Shown: in pieces, positions 3,920-9,821 of the stretch | How the letters are laid out: each line of letters begins with the position of its first letter | Numbering within the stretch: the first letter of the stretch is position 1 | Source: a virus | Taxonomy: Duplodnaviria > Heunggongvirae > Uroviricota > Caudoviricetes | DNA: 9,821 nt | Strand: one strand, 5' to 3' | IMG/VR virus record: IMGVR_UViG_2802429224_000016 | Notes under the pieces: model-generated | What the model was told of the DNA's origin: nothing | The model's input: only the letters and a program-made list of their open reading frames with translations | Database searches by the model: none | Made by a program: the position numbers and the translations under genes

Positions 3920-4504
3920 ATGAAAAGTATCCAGGACGTCCGCAGGCAAAATCTCAACGACTTGATCGACCGTGAATTCAATGGTGTTCAGACGCGGATG
4001 GCAGAAAAACTTGGAACTCAGGCAAATCTGGTAAACCGCTGGGCTCTTGGCAAGAAGGTTATCGGCGACCAGGTTGCGCGAAAAATTGAAGCTGCCGCCA
4101 ATAAACCCCGTAACTGGCTTGATATCGATCGCTCGCTTTCTCAGGAAGGTTTTCAGCCTGTCGGCCCGAGTGATATAGGTCAGCTGGCTGCTCACAACCT
4201 GGAACGCTGGATGAGCGAAAGCCGCGACCTTTCAACGCAGGGAAAACTACACCGCGCATCCGGCGTCGCCCAGGTGACAATCAGCCGCCTGTTAAACAAT
4301 GAGGTCAGCGTTTCCATTTCCACCCTGGAGAATGTTGCATCTGCATTCGGGCGTCATGGCTATGAATTACTGATTCACCCGCACGACCCTGCGACTATCA
4401 ACTATGACCGCTCGCGCTACGCATTGTTACCCGAAACCGAGAAAGCAAAGATCGAAAGTTACATTGAATTTGTCATCAACCAGAACGAAAAAAACAAACA
4501 ATAA
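3920..4504 (+). CDS. Putative prophage repressor with tandem HTH_XRE-like domains, no S24/LexA-type peptidase domain (194 aa)
   Basis: First HTH around QTRMAEKLGTQANLVNRWALGKKVIGDQVARKIEAA, second around LHRASGVAQVTISRLLNNEVSVSISTLENVASAFG. No Ser/Lys autocleavage motif seen in the C-terminus. cI-equivalent position: divergent from cro, flanked by both operator clusters. No SD upstream of ATG 3920, so a leaderless transcript is possible. Confidence 0.7.
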   Translation: MKSIQDVRRQNLNDLIDREFNGVQTRMAEKLGTQANLVNRWALGKKVIGDQVARKIEAAANKPRNWLDIDRSLSQEGFQPVGPSDIGQLAAHNLERWMSESRDLSTQGKLHRASGVAQVTISRLLNNEVSVSISTLENVASAFGRHGYELLIHPHDPATINYDRSRYALLPETEKAKIESYIEFVINQNEKNKQ

Positions 4505-4524: not shown

Positions 4525-4550
4525 AAGCCGCCATGAGGCGGCTTTTTTAT
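4525..4550 (+). terminator. Rho-independent terminator after the repressor gene
   Basis: AAGCCGCC-ATGA-GGCGGCTT (4525-4544) followed by TTTTTTATT. Confidence 0.7.
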
Positions 4551-4561
4551 TGCCTGTTAGA

Positions 4562-4638
4562 TTACCTGTTGGGTAATTTTTTTAACTCATATCTATTGAC
4601 ATCAAACCAGATACGCATAATTATTACCTAAACGGTAA
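4562..4638. promoter_or_regulatory. oL-like operator pair (4562-4576 TTACCTGTTGGGTAA; 4624-4638 TTACCTAAACGGTAA)
   Basis: Two perfect palindromes flanking a candidate promoter. The 16-mer TTACCTGTTGGGTAAT is identical to the site at 3850-3865. Confidence 0.55.
4596..4624 (+). promoter_or_regulatory. pL-like promoter for the rightward early operon
   Basis: Perfect -35 TTGACA (4596-4601). The -10 is either AATTAT at 17-bp spacing (4619-4624) or CATAAT at 14-bp spacing (4616-4621). The -10 region abuts or overlaps operator 4624-4638. Confidence 0.35.
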
Positions 4639-4812: not shown

Positions 4813-5112
4813 ATGAACGTTAATCAGCAGAAAAATCTTCAAAAAATCATGCTGGCATTCGACAAGGACTACCGCCTGTCAGAACAGCTATATGACCGAC
4901 AAGTTGAACTGATTGAGAGCATCCGACTTCATCAACTGTCCTCAACTTTCGACGTTGTAACAGGCAAAGGCGTTCGTCAGGAAGTACTGGAGGCTGCTAA
5001 AGACAGCCCTGAGTTCGAAGAACTGATGGATGCCTATCGGCGAGAGGCAATGGCAATTATCGCCCGCTGGGATCTGGCGGATCAGCTTGATGGACAGAGG
5101 GACGCGGCATGA
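4813..5112 (+). CDS. Hypothetical protein (99 aa), translationally coupled to the downstream exonuclease gene
   Basis: ATG 4813 with GGAGGG (4801-4806) 6 nt upstream; the track's ATG 4798 lacks an RBS. Stop overlaps the exonuclease start (ATGA at 5109-5112). No family recognised. Confidence 0.55.
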   Translation: MNVNQQKNLQKIMLAFDKDYRLSEQLYDRQVELIESIRLHQLSSTFDVVTGKGVRQEVLEAAKDSPEFEELMDAYRREAMAIIARWDLADQLDGQRDAA

Positions 5113-6008
5113 TGCGGAACGCTGGAATCATGGATAGAACAAAATACATCGGAGGAAGCGATGTTGCAGGGATTCTTGGAATTAGCCCATGGCGCACCCC
5201 GCTTGAGGTTTATCTGGATAAGGTCCAGCCACGTGTCAAACCAGTAGACCCAAGCAAGCAGAAAGTTTTCACGCGTGGCCAGCGTATGGAGCCATACGTA
5301 ATAGACCTGCTTTCTGAGGAAACAGGGATGGAAATCGTTCATCGCGGAAACCGCTATATCCACCGTGATTACGATTTTATTGCAGCTGAGATCGATGCAG
5401 AAGCAGCGTCAGGCGAGAACATTGAGATCAAAACAGTTAGTCCGTTCAAAGCCAAAGAATGGGGAGAAATCCAGACAGATGCAATTCCTGTGCATTACAC
5501 GGCCCAGGCCATGCACGGGTTGATGGTTACAAACAAACAGGTATGCGTTTTCGGTGTGCTTATCGGTGGCGACGACTTCCGAATCTATCGGGTTGAGCGT
5601 GATGAAGAAACTATCCAGGCGATCTTAGAAAAAGAAATCGCTTTCTGGGACCGAGTGAAAAATCTTAACCCGCCGGAAGCTACCAGCGTAAGCGATGTAT
5701 CGCTGATGTTTGAGAAAGATGCCGGGACAAGTATCGAGGCTGACGGAAAGGCACTCGCACTATTCAACGATCTACGAGACATGAAGTCACGCAGAAAATC
5801 ACTGGAAGAAGAAATAGCTATATCAGAAGAGAAGCTGAAGATGTACATGCAAGAGCACTCAGTCCTGACCCTGGACGGAAAGCCGCTCTGCACATGGAAA
5901 TCTCAGATCAGCAACAGATTCGACCAGAAGCTATTCCAGTCAGTACACCCTGAGTTATTCGAAAAATTCAAAACAACAACGACACAACGCGTCTTCAGAA
6001 TGAAGTAA
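5109..6008 (+). CDS. YqaJ-type viral recombinase-associated exonuclease (lambda-Exo superfamily, PD-(D/E)xK)
   Basis: N-terminal motif IGGSDVAGILGISPWRTPLEVY is typical of YqaJ-family phage exonucleases. Sits immediately upstream of recT. GAGGG RBS before ATG 5109. Confidence 0.85.
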   Translation: MMRNAGIMDRTKYIGGSDVAGILGISPWRTPLEVYLDKVQPRVKPVDPSKQKVFTRGQRMEPYVIDLLSEETGMEIVHRGNRYIHRDYDFIAAEIDAEAASGENIEIKTVSPFKAKEWGEIQTDAIPVHYTAQAMHGLMVTNKQVCVFGVLIGGDDFRIYRVERDEETIQAILEKEIAFWDRVKNLNPPEATSVSDVSLMFEKDAGTSIEADGKALALFNDLRDMKSRRKSLEEEIAISEEKLKMYMQEHSVLTLDGKPLCTWKSQISNRFDQKLFQSVHPELFEKFKTTTTQRVFRMK

Positions 6009-6017
6009 GGAGAAAAA

Positions 6018-7040
6018 ATGTCTATCAATGCACTTAAGGCAGCGGCTACCGGTAACCAAGTTGCACATCATAATGAGAAACCAACAACTCTGGCCGGACT
6101 TCTGGCAGACCCAAAAATTAAAGCTCAGATGGCTTTGGCACTTCCAAAGCACATGACAGCAGACCGTCTGGCGCGCATAGCAACCACAGAGATCCGAAAG
6201 GTTCCAAAACTTGCATCATGCGACCAAGCCAGCTTCCTGGGGGCAATTATGCAATGTGCCCAATTGGGTCTTGAACCAGGCGGAGCTCTTGGACACGCTT
6301 ACCTGATACCGTTCGACAAACGCCAGAAAGTAAATGGAAGATGGGAAACCGTATCTACAGAAGCACAGCTGATTATCGGCTATCGCGGAATGATTGACCT
6401 TGCCCGCCGCTCTGGGCAGATCCTGAGTATCTCGGCTCGTACCGTACATACAAACGACAAATTCAGCTACTCATACGGCCTGGAAGAAACGCTCGAGCAT
6501 TTACCTTGCGAAACAGGTGACCGCGGAGAATTAACGCACGTTTACGCCGTTGCACGACTGAAAGATGGCGGAGTCCAATTTGAAGTTATGAGCCGGGCAG
6601 ACGTTGAGAAAGTTCGTGCACTGAGCAAAGCCGGTAGCAGTGGCCCATGGGTTGATCACTTCGATGAGATGGCTAAAAAAACAGTAATTCGCCGACTGTT
6701 CAAATATCTTCCTGTTTCTATTGAAATGCAGAAGGCTGTTGTTATGGATGAGCGCGCTGAAGCTGGACTTAGCCAAGATAACGCAGCTGTTATCACTGGT
6801 GAATATTCCGTAGTTGACGATGAGCGTCAACACCTGTCGCCAATTTCAGATTCAGAACGAGAAGAAGCTCGAGAATATATCATCGCGATACTTAATAGCC
6901 TGGATCCATCTGCTGAAGATGCAAAAACGATGTTCAAGCGCGCTGAAAATGAAATTAACACCATGGCTGACAAGCTCGGTGATGAATATCACCAAAAATT
7001 CATGATGACGCTTAACGATATGCGTCCAGAATTCGAGTAA
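6018..7040 (+). CDS. recT: RecT-family single-strand annealing recombinase
   Basis: Strong resemblance to Rac-prophage RecT as recalled: MTADRLARIATTEIRKVP, LIIGYRGMIDLARRSGQI, THVYAVARLKDGGVQFEVM, GPWVDHFDEMAKKTVIRRLFKYLPVSIE. AAGGAG RBS before ATG 6018. Confidence 0.9.
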   Translation: MSINALKAAATGNQVAHHNEKPTTLAGLLADPKIKAQMALALPKHMTADRLARIATTEIRKVPKLASCDQASFLGAIMQCAQLGLEPGGALGHAYLIPFDKRQKVNGRWETVSTEAQLIIGYRGMIDLARRSGQILSISARTVHTNDKFSYSYGLEETLEHLPCETGDRGELTHVYAVARLKDGGVQFEVMSRADVEKVRALSKAGSSGPWVDHFDEMAKKTVIRRLFKYLPVSIEMQKAVVMDERAEAGLSQDNAAVITGEYSVVDDERQHLSPISDSEREEAREYIIAILNSLDPSAEDAKTMFKRAENEINTMADKLGDEYHQKFMMTLNDMRPEFE

Positions 7041-7089
7041 CCACCACCGCGGCGCCACACGCGCCGCACTGCAACCAAGAGAGGTATTT

Positions 7090-7338
7090 ATGAAAGGTGC
7101 ATTAGGTAAGAAGGAACTCCTGGCGGTGGTGCCACTGTCATGGAGCACTATCGACCGTATGGAGCGCGCAGGGGAATTTCCTAAACGCTGGTATATCACC
7201 GATAAACGCTGCGCATGGAACCGTGATGAAGTTGAGCGTTGGCTTGATGAACGTCAGGCAGCAAGCCCGGCAGAGTTCCAGGGTAAAAAGCCTCCGGTTC
7301 AGCAACGTGTATATCGTCCTGTGAGCAACGCTGCATGA
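7090..7338 (+). CDS. AlpA/Xis-like small winged-HTH protein (putative excisionase or regulator), 82 aa
   Basis: Motif LLAVVPLSWSTIDRMERAGEFPKRWYITDKRCAWNRDEVERWLDER fits the AlpA/Vis/TorI excisionase-type fold as I recall it. AGAGAGG RBS. Lies between recT and int. Confidence 0.7.
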   Translation: MKGALGKKELLAVVPLSWSTIDRMERAGEFPKRWYITDKRCAWNRDEVERWLDERQAASPAEFQGKKPPVQQRVYRPVSNAA

Positions 7339-7433
7339 GTGTGCTGCAAATGGTCAGGATGGTACTTATTCCTGGCCTCTGTTTCAGCATGGCTTTATCT
7401 GCTGGCATTAATTTTAAGAGAGGGTTGGATTAA

Positions 7434-7733
7434 GTGAGAAAGTTAAGCCGACTTGAAAAATATCACATGAATAAGGTTTCAATGCGCAGTCCGTCAAAGA
7501 TTGTCGCCGTTACTCCTGCGGCGATAGAGATCGAAAAACGCGCGATTGAACGAGAGAAAAAAGGGCAGTTCCGCATTGCCGCCCACCTTTGGCTTCAGTG
7601 TATGGATGTTGCTTCTGGTGATGTTGAGCGTGCAAGGATCGCGGTTCGCAGGGACCAATGTATCACAAAAGGTAACGGCCTTCGCCGTGGCGACTATAGC
7701 GGCATAGGATGTTGCGGGGTGGTTTATGACTAA
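7434..7733 (+). CDS. Hypothetical small protein (99 aa)
   Basis: Coordinates taken from the supplied ORF track; my own reading of the first two codons from the sequence text did not reproduce the track's start, so the start is uncertain (ATG 7467 is an in-frame alternative). Stop TAA 7731-7733 overlaps the methyltransferase start (ATGACTAA). Confidence 0.45.
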   Translation: MRKLSRLEKYHMNKVSMRSPSKIVAVTPAAIEIEKRAIEREKKGQFRIAAHLWLQCMDVASGDVERARIAVRRDQCITKGNGLRRGDYSGIGCCGVVYD

Positions 7734-8376
7734 GAAATACACACTAATCTATGCAGATCCACCCTGGGTATACCGGGACAAAGCCGCAGATGGTAATCGC
7801 GGTGCCGGTTTTAAATATCCAGTTATGAGTGTGCTGGATATCTGCCGCCTTCCTGTGTGGGATTTGGCCGCTGAAAACTGTCTGTTGGCCATGTGGTGGG
7901 TGCCAACACAACCACTCGAAGCACTAAAAGTTGTTGAAGCCTGGGGATTTCGTCTTATGACCATGAAGGGCTTCACGTGGATAAAATGTGGTAGTCGACA
8001 ACCAGATAAACTGGTTATGGGTATGGGACACATGACCCGCGCCAATAGTGAAGATTGCCTGTTTGCGGTAAAGGGAAAACTACCTCCGCGCATTAATGCA
8101 GGGATCGTTCAGTCATTTACCGCACCGCGGCTTGAGCACTCAAGAAAACCAGATGTCGTTCGTGAAAAACTTGTGCAATTGTTAGGCGATGTTTCTCGCA
8201 TTGAACTGTTCGCCCGCCAGTCGTCTCATGACTTCGATGTTTGGGGTAATCAGTGCGAAAACTCGGCAGTGCAACTACACCCTGGATACGCGTTGGATAT
8301 TGGCGGATTAACAAATGCATTCAGCAATTCTCCGCTGTCACCAACAGACAACCAGGGGCGGGAGCGTGCTGCATGA
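7726..8376 (+). CDS. MT-A70-family N6-adenine DNA methyltransferase (DPPW motif), 216 aa
   Basis: N-terminal YTLIYADPPWVY contains the DPPW catalytic motif of MT-A70-type amino-methyltransferases. No adjacent restriction endonuclease gene in the window. Confidence 0.8.
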   Translation: MTKKYTLIYADPPWVYRDKAADGNRGAGFKYPVMSVLDICRLPVWDLAAENCLLAMWWVPTQPLEALKVVEAWGFRLMTMKGFTWIKCGSRQPDKLVMGMGHMTRANSEDCLFAVKGKLPPRINAGIVQSFTAPRLEHSRKPDVVREKLVQLLGDVSRIELFARQSSHDFDVWGNQCENSAVQLHPGYALDIGGLTNAFSNSPLSPTDNQGRERAA

Positions 8377-8567
8377 ACAGGGCATCACCAGCAGATTTAA
8401 GAAAATGCCTTGAAACTGCAAACATGCTTGCACACAGCGGGATCAGGTTTGTTCCAATTCCCGCTGTCACTGATGCTGAATTTGCAACACTGTCAGCAAT
8501 ATTCGAAAACAAAATTGAATCACTGGCAGCAGAAGCAGAGATGGAAGAAAATCAGCAGAACTATTAA
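8373..8567 (+). CDS. Hypothetical protein (64 aa), translationally coupled to the methyltransferase
   Basis: ATG 8373 overlaps the methyltransferase stop (ATGA); GGGAG 8 nt upstream. The longer track ORF from 8253 overlaps the methyltransferase in another frame and is rejected. Product MNRASPADLRKCLETANMLAHSGIRFVPIPAVTDAEFATLSAIFENKIESLAAEAEMEENQQNY. Confidence 0.45.
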   Translation: MNRASPADLRKCLETANMLAHSGIRFVPIPAVTDAEFATLSAIFENKIESLAAEAEMEENQQNY

Positions 8568-8570
8568 ACG

Positions 8571-9821
8571 TTATTCCCCCGCCATCCACTTCTCAAACTT
8601 CGACGGGGAGAACGGAATCAGATCCGTATGCTCCCCGTTAATCCAGGAATCAATCATATCGGCCCACTGCTGCAACATGTAGGCGCGCTGTCTGGCGTAT
8701 TCCGCTTTGTTATATACGGCGCGCACACCTTTCTGCTCATGTGCCAGAGCCTTTTCAATCCAGTCTGAAGGATAACCAGCCTCATGCAACAACGTACTGG
8801 CTGTACGGCGCATATCGTGTACGGTGAAGCCCTGAATATGCTCACCATCTTCATTTATTATTTTCACCGTTCTGTCGATCAGAGAGTTCAGCGCGGCATT
8901 AGATAATGGCTTCCGGAAATTGTAACGACCAGGAACCAGATATTCACTTCCACCAGCGCACATCTGCAACCCAACCAATATATCCTGTGCCTGTTTAGGC
9001 AGGTAAATAACGTGCGCCCGGCTTCCCTTCATGCGGTCTGAAGGAATTGTCCATGTCCATTTTTTAAAATCTATTTCATCCCACGTTGCATTGGTGAATT
9101 CGCCTTTACGAACCATAGTGATAAGCACCAGCTTTAAAGCAATTTTCATAGTGCCCATAGCACCAATGGCATCCAGCGTGCGGAAGAACAGGCCAATTTC
9201 TTCTGGTGTCAGTGTTCGCTCTCGTGGTTTAAATATGGCGATAGACGAAGGTTTAATGTCAGCCGCAGGATTAAACAAACCATGACCACGGTCATTGGCG
9301 TGACGGTATACGCTGCTGATGATCTCCCTGGCCTGTACTGCTGTTGCCCGACCACCACGTTCGACAATGCGGTCACACAAATCACGAACCATCGATGTGG
9401 TAATTTCAGCCATCATTTTGTTGCCAAGAACCGGAAGTATGTCACGGTCGATCACCGCCTGCTTCATTGCGCGGGTACTGTCAGCCAGGATGACGTGTTT
9501 CATATAACTGTCGGTATGTACCGCAAACGTCTCGGCACCACGAATCTTTTTGATACCGTCACGTTTAGCCGCAGCCGGTGACTGGCCTGCTTTAAGCAGC
9601 TTCTTTGCAGCAATCAGTTCTTCTCGCGCTTCTGCCAGGCTGATACCGTCACGCCCATACTGCCCGATTACCAGTGTTTCGCGGCGACCGTTGATACGGT
9701 AGTCATAGCGAAACGAGACCGTGCCTGACGTAAGAACAGCTACATACAGCCCGTCACGATCGGAGACCTTGTACAGTTTGTCCTGCGGCTTGAGGTTTTT
9801 TAATTTTGTATCGGTAAGCAC
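8571..9821 (-). CDS. int: Tyrosine recombinase / phage integrase (P4-type N-terminus), 5' end truncated by the window edge
   Basis: 416 codons open to the window end. N-terminal LTDTKLKNLKPQDKLYKVSDRDGLYV is a P4-like integrase signature; the C-terminus carries HxxR (HDMRRT) and the catalytic-Tyr region (VRAVYNKAEY). The first in-window codon is GTG, so the true start probably lies just beyond 9821. Confidence 0.9.
   Translation of the reverse strand: MLTDTKLKNLKPQDKLYKVSDRDGLYVAVLTSGTVSFRYDYRINGRRETLVIGQYGRDGISLAEAREELIAAKKLLKAGQSPAAAKRDGIKKIRGAETFAVHTDSYMKHVILADSTRAMKQAVIDRDILPVLGNKMMAEITTSMVRDLCDRIVERGGRATAVQAREIISSVYRHANDRGHGLFNPAADIKPSSIAIFKPRERTLTPEEIGLFFRTLDAIGAMGTMKIALKLVLITMVRKGEFTNATWDEIDFKKWTWTIPSDRMKGSRAHVIYLPKQAQDILVGLQMCAGGSEYLVPGRYNFRKPLSNAALNSLIDRTVKIINEDGEHIQGFTVHDMRRTASTLLHEAGYPSDWIEKALAHEQKGVRAVYNKAEYARQRAYMLQQWADMIDSWINGEHTDLIPFSPSKFEKWMAGE

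Follow-up and report, generated by a model that had tools for sequence, protein, structure and literature searches.

Gene content and setting of the locus

The window, that is the whole stretch of DNA analysed, comprises 9,821 nucleotides. It derives from a prophage of the phiV10/epsilon15 type (Uetakevirus), a temperate podovirus, and the window is fully syntenic with the annotated genomes of phiV10 and epsilon15. The locus of interest occupies the integrase-proximal (far) end of the early-left (PL-type) operon; among 5426 complete E. coli genomes, an intact copy is present in 534-565 (~10%). The relevant features are as follows.

4596..4624, + strand: promoter-like site, TTGACA-17-AATTAT, directly past the terminator of the repressor gene (4525-4544)
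7467..7733, + strand: PerC/ANR-like small transcriptional regulator (Pfam PerC, E 6e-7; NCBIfam ANR, E 3e-5; PHROG 868, E 1e-54)
7726..8376, + strand: orphan MT-A70 family (class beta) N6-adenine methyltransferase, 216 aa, orthologue of phiV10 gp33 (Pfam, PHROG, PADLOC, fold)
7756..7767, + strand: catalytic motif IV, DPPW, aa 11-14 of the methylase (codons gat cca ccc tgg)
8302..8373, + strand: methylase aa 193-216, the C-terminal tail specific to this allele; the ribosome-binding site of the next gene falls within its final codons
8360..8364, + strand: Shine-Dalgarno-like GGGAG, 8 nt 5′ of the start codon of the orf63-like gene (read from the sequence)
8373..8567, + strand: DUF1382 protein, 64 aa, homologue of lambda Orf63 (PF07131, PDB 8DSB, PHROG 292)
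8571..9821, − strand: P4-type tyrosine integrase (Pfam Arm-DNA-bind_3, Phage_int_M and Phage_integrase; 99% identity to the phiV10 integrase)

The site at 4596-4624 is the likely early promoter, of the PL type, for the operon whose last two genes are the methylase and orf63-like genes; annotated repressor operators are found at the matching position in epsilon15. No terminator-like site was found on the + strand between this site and position 8567. Besides the methylase, the operon carries the PerC-like, AlpA/Xis, Exo, RecT and Orf63-like genes. The PerC-like reading frame probably begins at the ATG at 7467, which would give a protein of 88 aa, as in phiV10p34. The 64-aa gene is a small stand-alone gene, the last of the operon, and abuts int, which is convergent with the operon and whose stop codon lies 3 nt from that of the orf63-like gene. 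Antisense ORFs at 7749-8093, 8117-8320 and 8321-8512 showed nothing of note, and searches for Rfam families and repeats within 7000-9000 found none.

An orphan MT-A70 methylase

The methylase matched the Pfam MT-A70 family (PF05063) with an E value of 2.7e-21 and a score of 76.7 bits (cutoff 23.9), residues 5-176 aligning with the entire profile (1-172/172). It also matched PHROG 359, "DNA methyltransferase" (E 1e-118), and the PADLOC MTase_II model, a REBASE-derived type II methyltransferase model (E 3e-77). Across 35 homologues, the DPPW residues P12 and W14 never vary, and conservation of D11 and P13 is 90% or higher. Its position close to the N-terminus, ahead of the SAM-binding motifs, corresponds to the beta order. 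The segments HSRKPD (138-143), IELFAR (159-164) and WGNQ (173-176) align with their counterparts in MTA1. An AF2 model of the protein (pTM 0.74) gave the catalytic domains of METTL3 and MTA1 as top PDB matches (Foldseek E 1e-12), indicating the MT-A70 Rossmann-like fold. By sequence, the nearest of the solved relatives is Tetrahymena MTA1, a DNA m6A enzyme (E 2.6e-13), followed by METTL3, which methylates RNA (E 1.5e-5). The full-length Pfam match and the motif at aa 11-14 thus bear out, at the sequence level, the initial annotation of an MT-A70-type adenine methyltransferase with a DPPW motif. Homologues occur in 512 phage records, 188 of them from Vibrio phages, and the core is under purifying selection (dN/dS 0.04-0.08 against distant homologues). 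The protein is already known by sequence, as phiV10 gp33.

The description of this methylase as an orphan held up as well: a cognate endonuclease nearby was looked for and is absent from the window. Pfam and PADLOC scans gave no restriction endonuclease match among the sizeable ORFs of the window, and the annotation of the inspected 16.7 kb of phiV10 lists no endonuclease either. The neighbours are the PerC-like, DUF1382 and integrase genes, and no nuclease family match flanks the methylase. A DUF1064 gene (1109-1453), nuclease-like, was considered as a hidden restriction partner and discarded, as it lies more than 6 kb away in the replication operon. A Type II restriction-modification system was likewise rejected, the methylase having no paired endonuclease gene in the window.

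The 64-aa protein belongs to the lambda Orf63 family

The small protein encoded downstream had been described as being of unknown function. It proved to be a member of the DUF1382/lambda Orf63 family, matching all 60 profile positions of PF07131 (E 1.8e-30, 105 bits, cutoff 27) and, over residues 2-62, lambda Orf63 itself (PDB 8DSB, E 8.5e-13); tblastn gave 51% identity to lambda orf63. A longer reading of the ORF, from GTG 8253, was rejected: its 40 extra residues all fall outside the Pfam match.

Lambda Orf63 is a dimeric, pro-lytic protein of the exo-xis region; its dimeric alpha-beta-alpha fold and pro-lytic effect are known only for lambda and Phi24B (PMC10869804, PMC5575149). The lambda protein did not bind the single 32-bp palindromic double-stranded DNA tested, and its cleft takes an amphipathic helix; the K54E substitution abolished the pro-lytic effect in a survival assay (PMC10869804). 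In the homologue from the window, E36 and K47 are conserved and the position of lambda K54 is occupied by Glu. Because this is the residue found in the inactive K54E mutant, the lambda phenotype may not carry over to the window protein, and it is with this proviso that we infer a similar role.

Gene overlaps and the C-terminal tail of the methylase

The stop codon of the PerC-like gene overlaps the methylase start by 8 nt (ATGACTAA, 7726-7733), and the methylase and 64-aa genes overlap by 4 nt (ATGA, 8373-8376). The overlaps on which the initial annotation based translational coupling at both ends are therefore present. Their special meaning for this gene pair did not stand, as overlaps occur at four of the eight gene junctions of the operon (5109, 7335, 7726 and 8373); moreover, ATGA overlaps are also seen where homologues adjoin unrelated genes. 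Folding of 8330-8400 against shuffled sequences revealed nothing unusual by way of RNA structure hiding the orf63-like start (z = 0.79). Since this start has its own GGGAG and no unusual RNA structure around it, coupling of the 64-aa gene is possible but not required, and true coupling through a hidden start codon was dismissed as unsupported.

A C-terminal tail of about 35 aa had also been noted. The extension exists, but its length needed correction: the methylase continues for 40 aa past the Pfam match, of which residues 177-192 are conserved in all homologues and only the last 24 (193-216) are allele-specific. Residues 200-216 are predicted to be disordered (pLDDT <50 in the AF2 model). 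Outside the window, the 193-216 tail occurs only in phiV10, Salmonella P0007, Enterobacter P0080 and L049; epsilon15 and most homologues lack it. Blastn comparisons placed a homology breakpoint at ~8255-8287, breakpoints coinciding exactly with cassette borders. In Enterobacter kobei the tail is followed by a 124-aa gene, in Salmonella by one for a coiled-coil protein of 59 aa. The idea that it serves as a docking element for the 64-aa protein was given up on account of these unrelated neighbours and of the predicted disorder. Overlap and tail are generic features of this methylase allele.

Is the Orf63-like protein a partner of the methylase?

The initial annotation had suggested that the 64-aa protein might be a specificity or regulatory subunit of the methylase. 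The comparative data did not support this. No DUF1382 gene was found within 4 kb of the methylase in any of 43 species-level loci of the subfamily. In syntenic prophages, the slot between methylase and integrase holds zero to two unrelated small ORFs, and other genes fill it in epsilon15 and in Salmonella, Klebsiella and Citrobacter relatives, DUF1382 being absent from epsilon15 and the Salmonella relative. Conversely, DUF1382 occurs without an adjacent MT-A70 gene in lambda, 933W, Erwinia, Sasha and Sf11 phages; the lambda order is orf60a-orf63-orf61, with no methylase. In Enterobacter kobei prophages the order is reversed, DUF1382 preceding the methylase. A fusion search that covered 1.84 billion representatives showed no MT-A70/DUF1382 fusion among the best 150 of 514 family clusters, the fusions seen being to HTH domains; DUF1382 proteins nearly always stand alone, at a length of 55-90 aa. 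A scan of DUF1382 neighbourhoods in IMG/VR returned nearly exclusively near-identical phiV10-like contigs, so that it afforded no unbiased count. A subunit of the HsdS, METTL14/MTA9 or p1/p2 kind was rejected, being neither co-conserved with the methylase nor seen fused to it in those best 150 clusters. Most likely, the methylase and DUF1382 genes are two independent cassettes, with DUF1382 an independently shuffled neighbour.

We nevertheless weighed a looser form of cooperation, in which an Orf63-like dimer would bind the methylase, for example through its hydrophobic helix-binding cleft, and act as an activator, an inhibitor or a targeting adaptor akin to the accessory subunits of eukaryotic MT-A70 enzymes. 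The two genes adjoin in three arrangements (the phiV10 type, the ArgO145/phi315/P27 type of Stx phages and the reversed order of E. kobei), which is more than a single inherited accident, and they do so with overlapping stop and start codons in three types of junction. In the Stx-phage pair, the methylases are 82% identical to that of the window while the DUF1382 proteins are only ~51% identical and the junction differs; about 110 Stx2a phage records appear in the match lists of both families with adjacent coordinates. Also in favour is that the Orf63 cleft binds an amphipathic helix (PMC10869804). Moreover, the solved MT-A70 enzymes are all multi-subunit (METTL14; MTA9 with p1 and p2), and for that reason the stand-alone state of the phage methylase is itself an assumption. 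Against cooperation stand the 43 loci lacking DUF1382, the other occupants of the slot, the DUF1382 genes lacking a methylase neighbour and the missing fusions, as well as the tail, which precedes DUF1382 here and unrelated genes elsewhere. One Stx2a group retains DUF1382 beside a 5′-truncated methylase remnant. Furthermore, all three arrangements fall in one small, highly recombining accessory slot, where chance adjacency is expected fairly often. On balance, we regard a partnership as quite improbable.

Proposed function of the two cassettes

The reading we favour, with a probability of roughly 0.6, is that the locus combines a stand-alone anti-restriction m6A DNA methylase with a separate developmental modulator of the Orf63 type. 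For the methylase we infer a DNA substrate, a protective role, homodimerization and low specificity. Its expression, along with that of Exo, RecT and Xis, would be limited to the time after infection or induction, with the cI-like repressor inactive. The target adenine would be flipped into the DPPW pocket and replicating phage DNA would become methylated, so that genomes, once packaged, would withstand adenine-sensitive restriction systems of the host infected next. The size of the protein, about that of the bare METTL3 catalytic domain, and its lack of an added target-recognition domain suggest that it is probably a homodimer acting on a short or degenerate site. Independently of the methylase, the Orf63-family protein would act as a dimeric adaptor that tunes the lysis-lysogeny programme via protein contacts. 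The orphan methylase lies in a phage early operon with no endonuclease gene nearby. Either an anti-restriction or a regulatory role is a reasonable reading, as originally suggested.

A regulatory role taken as the main one would make the methylase an epigenetic regulator of the phage programme, affecting lysis-lysogeny, control of replication and recombination, or a packaging mark. The gene does sit amid regulatory and recombination genes (PerC-like activator, AlpA/Xis, Exo, RecT, Orf63-like), some sources label its homologues [quoted passage not shown], and regulatory roles of m6A are established in phage and bacterial biology (PMC4738411). However, literature searches covering phiV10, epsilon15, prophage MT-A70/SMRT and the C227-11 methylome found no biochemistry, methylome data or measured target motif for this subfamily, and the missing motif tells against a regulator. 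So does the apparent dispensability of the methylase, insofar as many related prophage loci vary around it. The presence of the subfamily in very different phage backgrounds, the Vibrio phages among them, fits general protection better than a circuit-specific role, and we consider primary regulation rather unlikely.

Modification of RNA or single-stranded DNA instead of duplex phage DNA, the targets being host or phage RNA or Exo/RecT intermediates, is suggested by the closeness of the fold to the METTL3 catalytic domain and by the operon shared with Exo and RecT. METTL3-METTL14 favours single-stranded DNA over single-stranded RNA in vitro (PMC7544214), and JGI labels the homologues "N6-adenosine-specific RNA methylase IME4". 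This label, though, is an automatic COG name; the nearest solved relative by sequence is the DNA methylase MTA1 and not METTL3, the match to REBASE-derived type II DNA methyltransferase models is strong, and the protein has no RNA-binding domain, all of which makes such substrates quite improbable. Least credible is a view of the two genes as prophage cargo in decay that no longer serves a function. Some Stx2a phages do keep only a methylase remnant (aa 94-187), and lysogens often do not express their prophage methylases (PMC5778455, PMC4659465). Yet the reading frames are intact, the catalytic motifs invariant and the dN/dS values low, and the genes are carried by functional, plaque-forming phages such as phiV10, epsilon15 and ZX5.

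Both genes were already known, as phiV10 gp33 and gp32 and from hundreds of E. coli genomes, and their identification amounts to routine annotation. The wider interest of the locus lies in how common the minimal MT-A70 core of ~190 aa is, being present in ~10% of complete E. coli genomes and in many Stx2a and many Vibrio phages. An enzyme this small, related to METTL3 and MTA1 yet stand-alone, could prove useful as a model or tool. The repeated adjacency of Orf63 and methylase also provides a cheap hypothesis for the molecular partner of Orf63. A functional partnership between DUF1382 dimers and small phage MT-A70 methylases, with the dimer serving for instance as an on/off switch or a targeting adaptor, is quite improbable; if true, it would connect adenine methylation of DNA with the "developmental" exo-xis genes found in lambdoid and Stx phages.

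Comparison with known systems

The closest counterpart is phiV10, from which the locus shows essentially no difference: gp33 (YP_512288.1, "DNA methyltransferase") is 96% identical, has 216 aa including the tail and is followed by a DUF1382 gene, as in the window. The epsilon15 adenine methylase (NP_848237.1) is 77% identical and has the same DPPW motif. In both phages the gene is placed after a PerC-like gene and before a convergent P4-type integrase, as here. The epsilon15 enzyme differs in having 192 aa and no tail, and the next small gene is annotated as "transacetylase repressor". In Stx phages (ArgO145 gp05/gp04; phi315; P27; O104:H4 P13353/P13368), the related methylase gene directly precedes and overlaps a DUF1382 gene close to xis and int; the methylase C-terminus differs, as do the junction and the DUF1382 sequence. 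Stx phages with the MT-A70/DUF1382 pair often possess, within the exo-xis block, an additional orf63 of the canonical kind (PMC8614690).

Lambda Orf63 (PDB 8DSB; ~50% identity) is likewise encoded by a small gene of a PL-type operon, between the recombination genes and int, but it differs in its neighbours, orf60a and orf61, and in the residue at position 54. M.EcoGII and M.EcoGI are orphan, prophage-borne, class-beta adenine methylases, like that of the window, and are thought to be made only upon induction and to protect phage DNA (PMC5778455). Identity with these enzymes was rejected: they belong to another family, not MT-A70, with 349 aa, DPPY and FxGxG motifs and a target-recognition domain of normal size. 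Tetrahymena MTA1 (7F4L, 7YI8) and human METTL3 (5IL1 and others) are alike in fold (Foldseek E 1e-12, TM ~0.64) and have in common with the phage methylase the DPPW, S-x-K-P, ELF(A/G)R and GNQ motifs in class-beta order. They require an inactive paralogue, MTA9 or METTL14, and MTA1 also the DNA-binding subunits p1 and p2, whereas the phage genome encodes no paralogue of its methylase, a bare core of ~190 aa that is, for this reason, presumably a homodimer.

Genomic setting of the methylase gene

The window (9.8 kb) comes from a temperate podovirus of the phiV10/epsilon15 type (genus Uetakevirus) integrated in E. coli, and covers its immunity, replication and early-left region. The order of every gene is collinear with the annotated phiV10 and epsilon15 genomes:

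3920-4504, +, cI-like repressor
between the cI-like repressor and the YqaJ-type exonuclease, +, two small genes
5109-6008, +, YqaJ-type exonuclease
6018-7040, +, RecT
7090-7338, +, AlpA-type excisionase/regulator
7335-7433, +, 32-aa ORF
7467-7733, +, PerC-like regulator
7726-8376, +, methylase
8373-8567, +, 64-aa gene (DUF1382)
8571-9821, -, P4-type integrase, convergent with the operon

As in epsilon15, the exonuclease and RecT are encoded by separate genes (5109-7040), whereas the phiV10 record (5744-7504) is annotated with a single fused RecE/RecT product. Of 5426 complete E. coli genomes, 565 have a match to the segment 7000-8700, in most cases with 95-99% identity; the RefSeq gene names there are 'PerC family regulator', 'MT-A70 family methyltransferase', 'DUF1382 family protein' and 'integrase'. 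Among phages, the segment is 97% identical to phiV10, about 95-97% to about a dozen other named phages and about 80% to epsilon15. Both the methylase and the 64-aa gene are already known and annotated.

A minimal MT-A70 methylase

The match of the 216-aa ORF to Pfam MT-A70 spans the entire profile (E 2.7e-21), and DPPW is found at residues 11-14, in agreement with the initial annotation. A sequence search of solved structures returned the Tetrahymena DNA m6A methylase MTA1 on top (E 2.6e-13), followed by METTL3 (E 1.5e-5). In these alignments the S-x-K-P and ELFAR-type motifs line up. An AlphaFold2 model (pTM 0.74) superposes on the catalytic domains of METTL3 and MTA1 (Foldseek E 1e-12, TM about 0.64). 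The phage enzyme is roughly as large as such a catalytic domain alone and has no extra target-recognition domain. With a cutoff of E <= 1e-5 the family comprises 2279 database clusters, most of them 188-200 aa long and from Enterobacterales prophages. Homologues occur in 512 phage records, of which 188 are from Vibrio phages and about 120 from Stx2 phages. Identity is 96% with phiV10 gp33, 82% with the methylase of Stx phage ArgO145 and 77% with that of epsilon15. The catalytic residues are invariant across 35 homologues, and dN/dS in the core is 0.04-0.08, values that are approximate because synonymous sites are saturated. No published report of a recognition site or activity was found in the literature searched. 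Membership of the M.EcoGI/GII family, whose proteins have 349 aa and DPPY/FxGxG motifs, was rejected. One database cluster (P0001; three members, 99% identity) combines PerC and MT-A70 domains in a 297-aa product, probably because a frameshift or the gene calling has joined the two genes across their 8-nt overlap.

The C-terminal tail of about 35 aa described in the initial annotation is present, but its extent needs revision. Forty residues follow the Pfam match; of these, 177-192 are conserved in all homologues and form a beta-hairpin in the AlphaFold2 model. Only residues 193-216 are allele-specific, with 200-216 predicted to be disordered.

Neither Pfam nor PADLOC detected a restriction endonuclease-like ORF in the window; together with the MT-A70 match, this supports the reading of the gene as an orphan methylase. 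A DUF1064 protein encoded at 1109-1453 (-; Pfam E 3.4e-7) has a PD...E-V-K pattern (YTPDF...ELHEVKG) resembling the PD-(D/E)XK nuclease motif; its gene is part of the rightward replication operon and does not adjoin the methylase gene.

The 64-aa protein is an Orf63 homologue

The neighbouring protein, previously listed as of unknown function, matches DUF1382 over its full length (E 1.8e-30) and the NMR structure of lambda Orf63 (PDB 8DSB; E 8.5e-13). Searching 1.84 billion representatives with a profile yielded 514 DUF1382 clusters, and among the best 150 nearly all members are stand-alone proteins of 55-90 aa. Two of ten longer proteins checked are fused to HTH domains (P0179, 195 aa; P0212, 175 aa), one arrangement having HTH_31 C-terminal and the other an RsaL-like HTH N-terminal to DUF1382. 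The Orf63 structure paper states that the fold is never found as a domain within a larger protein. These fusions hint that DUF1382 serves transcription regulators as a dimerisation/adaptor module, although gene-calling errors could also account for them. DUF1382 genes also occur outside the lambdoid group, in Sasha-like (Salmonella) and Sf11-like (Shigella) phages; the published view is that the family is confined to temperate phages.

Adjacency of the two genes probably does not reflect partnership

The overlaps flanking the methylase gene can be read in the sequence: ATGACTAA with the PerC-like gene (7726-7733) and ATGA with the 64-aa gene (8373-8376). Translational coupling as a mark of this pair was not supported, since four of the eight junctions in the operon overlap and a separate GGGAG stands eight bases before the start of the 64-aa gene. 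No unusual RNA structure was found at this junction. Homologous methylases (many among loci L006-L048) very often end in '...AA*' and are followed, through an identical ATGA overlap, by genes that are quite unrelated (RusA-like, coiled-coil 58-63-aa genes and others). The ATGA overlaps are not distinctive of the methylase/DUF1382 pair; '...AA'/ATGA suggests a conserved short junction, maybe a recombination boundary for cassette exchange.

The initial annotation proposed that the 64-aa protein could be a specificity or regulatory subunit of the methylase. The two genes are indeed adjacent in three junction types (phiV10, Stx phages and E. kobei), but with one genome taken per species, none of 43 loci carrying the methylase subfamily (56-91% identity) had DUF1382 within 4 kb, even when the HMMER filters were disabled. 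In syntenic prophages (AlpA-PerC-...-methylase-...-integrase) of Superficieibacter, Pseudescherichia, Kluyvera, Scandinavium, Citrobacter and Klebsiella, between zero and two small, unrelated ORFs occupy the methylase-integrase slot; in epsilon15 this place is taken by a different gene, and a Salmonella relative (L135) reads orf60a-methylase-59-aa coiled-coil. The order is reversed in E. kobei prophages (L049-L052, 3846-4836), which read (orf60a)-DUF1382-methylase-(124 aa), a block of exo-xis-type genes, orf60a(DUF1317)-orf63(DUF1382)-MT-A70. Lambda has orf60a-orf63-orf61 without any methylase, and the DUF1382 genes of Erwinia, Sasha-like and Sf11-like phages are set among other small early genes. 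The methylase seems to have been inserted at differing points of a lambda-like orf60a-orf63 block.

The long methylase tail is also found in the E. kobei and Salmonella enzymes, where other genes come next. By blastn, each cassette is its own homology block:

ending at 7733, PerC-like gene
7735 to about 8258, methylase core
to 8377, methylase tail
8368-8541, DUF1382
from 8582, integrase

None of the ten longer DUF1382 proteins is fused to MT-A70 either, and a real partnership appears very improbable. The observation itself and the orphan-methylase reading stand, while the subunit reading is not supported; we read the triple adjacency as common use of one small, highly recombining accessory slot.

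In a large group of Stx2a-converting phages (LC6160xx, e.g. LC616045.1, 2116-2593), an intact DUF1382 gene lies beside what is left of a methylase gene, which matches residues 94-187 alone and appears 5'-truncated.

Proposed roles and comparison with lambda Orf63

A promoter-like site (4596-4624) follows the terminator of the repressor gene, where epsilon15 has annotated operators, and no terminator-like site was found between it and 8567. Early expression of both genes is therefore probable: silent in the lysogen, they would be made after infection or induction with the recombination and excision functions. Most likely, the methylase would modify adenines of replicating phage DNA and thereby keep progeny genomes safe from restriction once they reach the next host. 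An enzyme of such minimal size probably works as a homodimer and recognises a short or relaxed site, by analogy with the 'division of labour' within dimers that has been proposed for enzymes of class beta (PMC7544214). The stops of the 64-aa and integrase genes, on opposite strands, are 3 nt apart (TAAACGTTA, 8565-8573); given this spacing and the lack of a plus-strand terminator-like site, the early transcript is expected to run antisense into int and could lower integrase during lytic growth.

The points that retain interest are the specificity of this very common minimal enzyme and the partner of Orf63. The 64-aa protein would most likely act separately from the methylase, as a small dimeric adaptor in early regulation, a role that the HTH fusions of its family fit. 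Lambda Orf63 is an early, non-essential, dimeric exo-xis protein that accelerates lytic development and prophage induction; it did not bind the single dsDNA assayed, its hydrophobic cleft takes an amphipathic helix, and its partner candidates come from yeast two-hybrid only (PMC10869804, PMC5575149, PMC8614690). E36 and K47 of lambda Orf63 are conserved in the 64-aa protein, in which position 54 is Glu (8532-8534). Since K54E abolished the pro-lytic effect in the lambda assay (PMC10869804), the protein may differ in behaviour from lambda Orf63.
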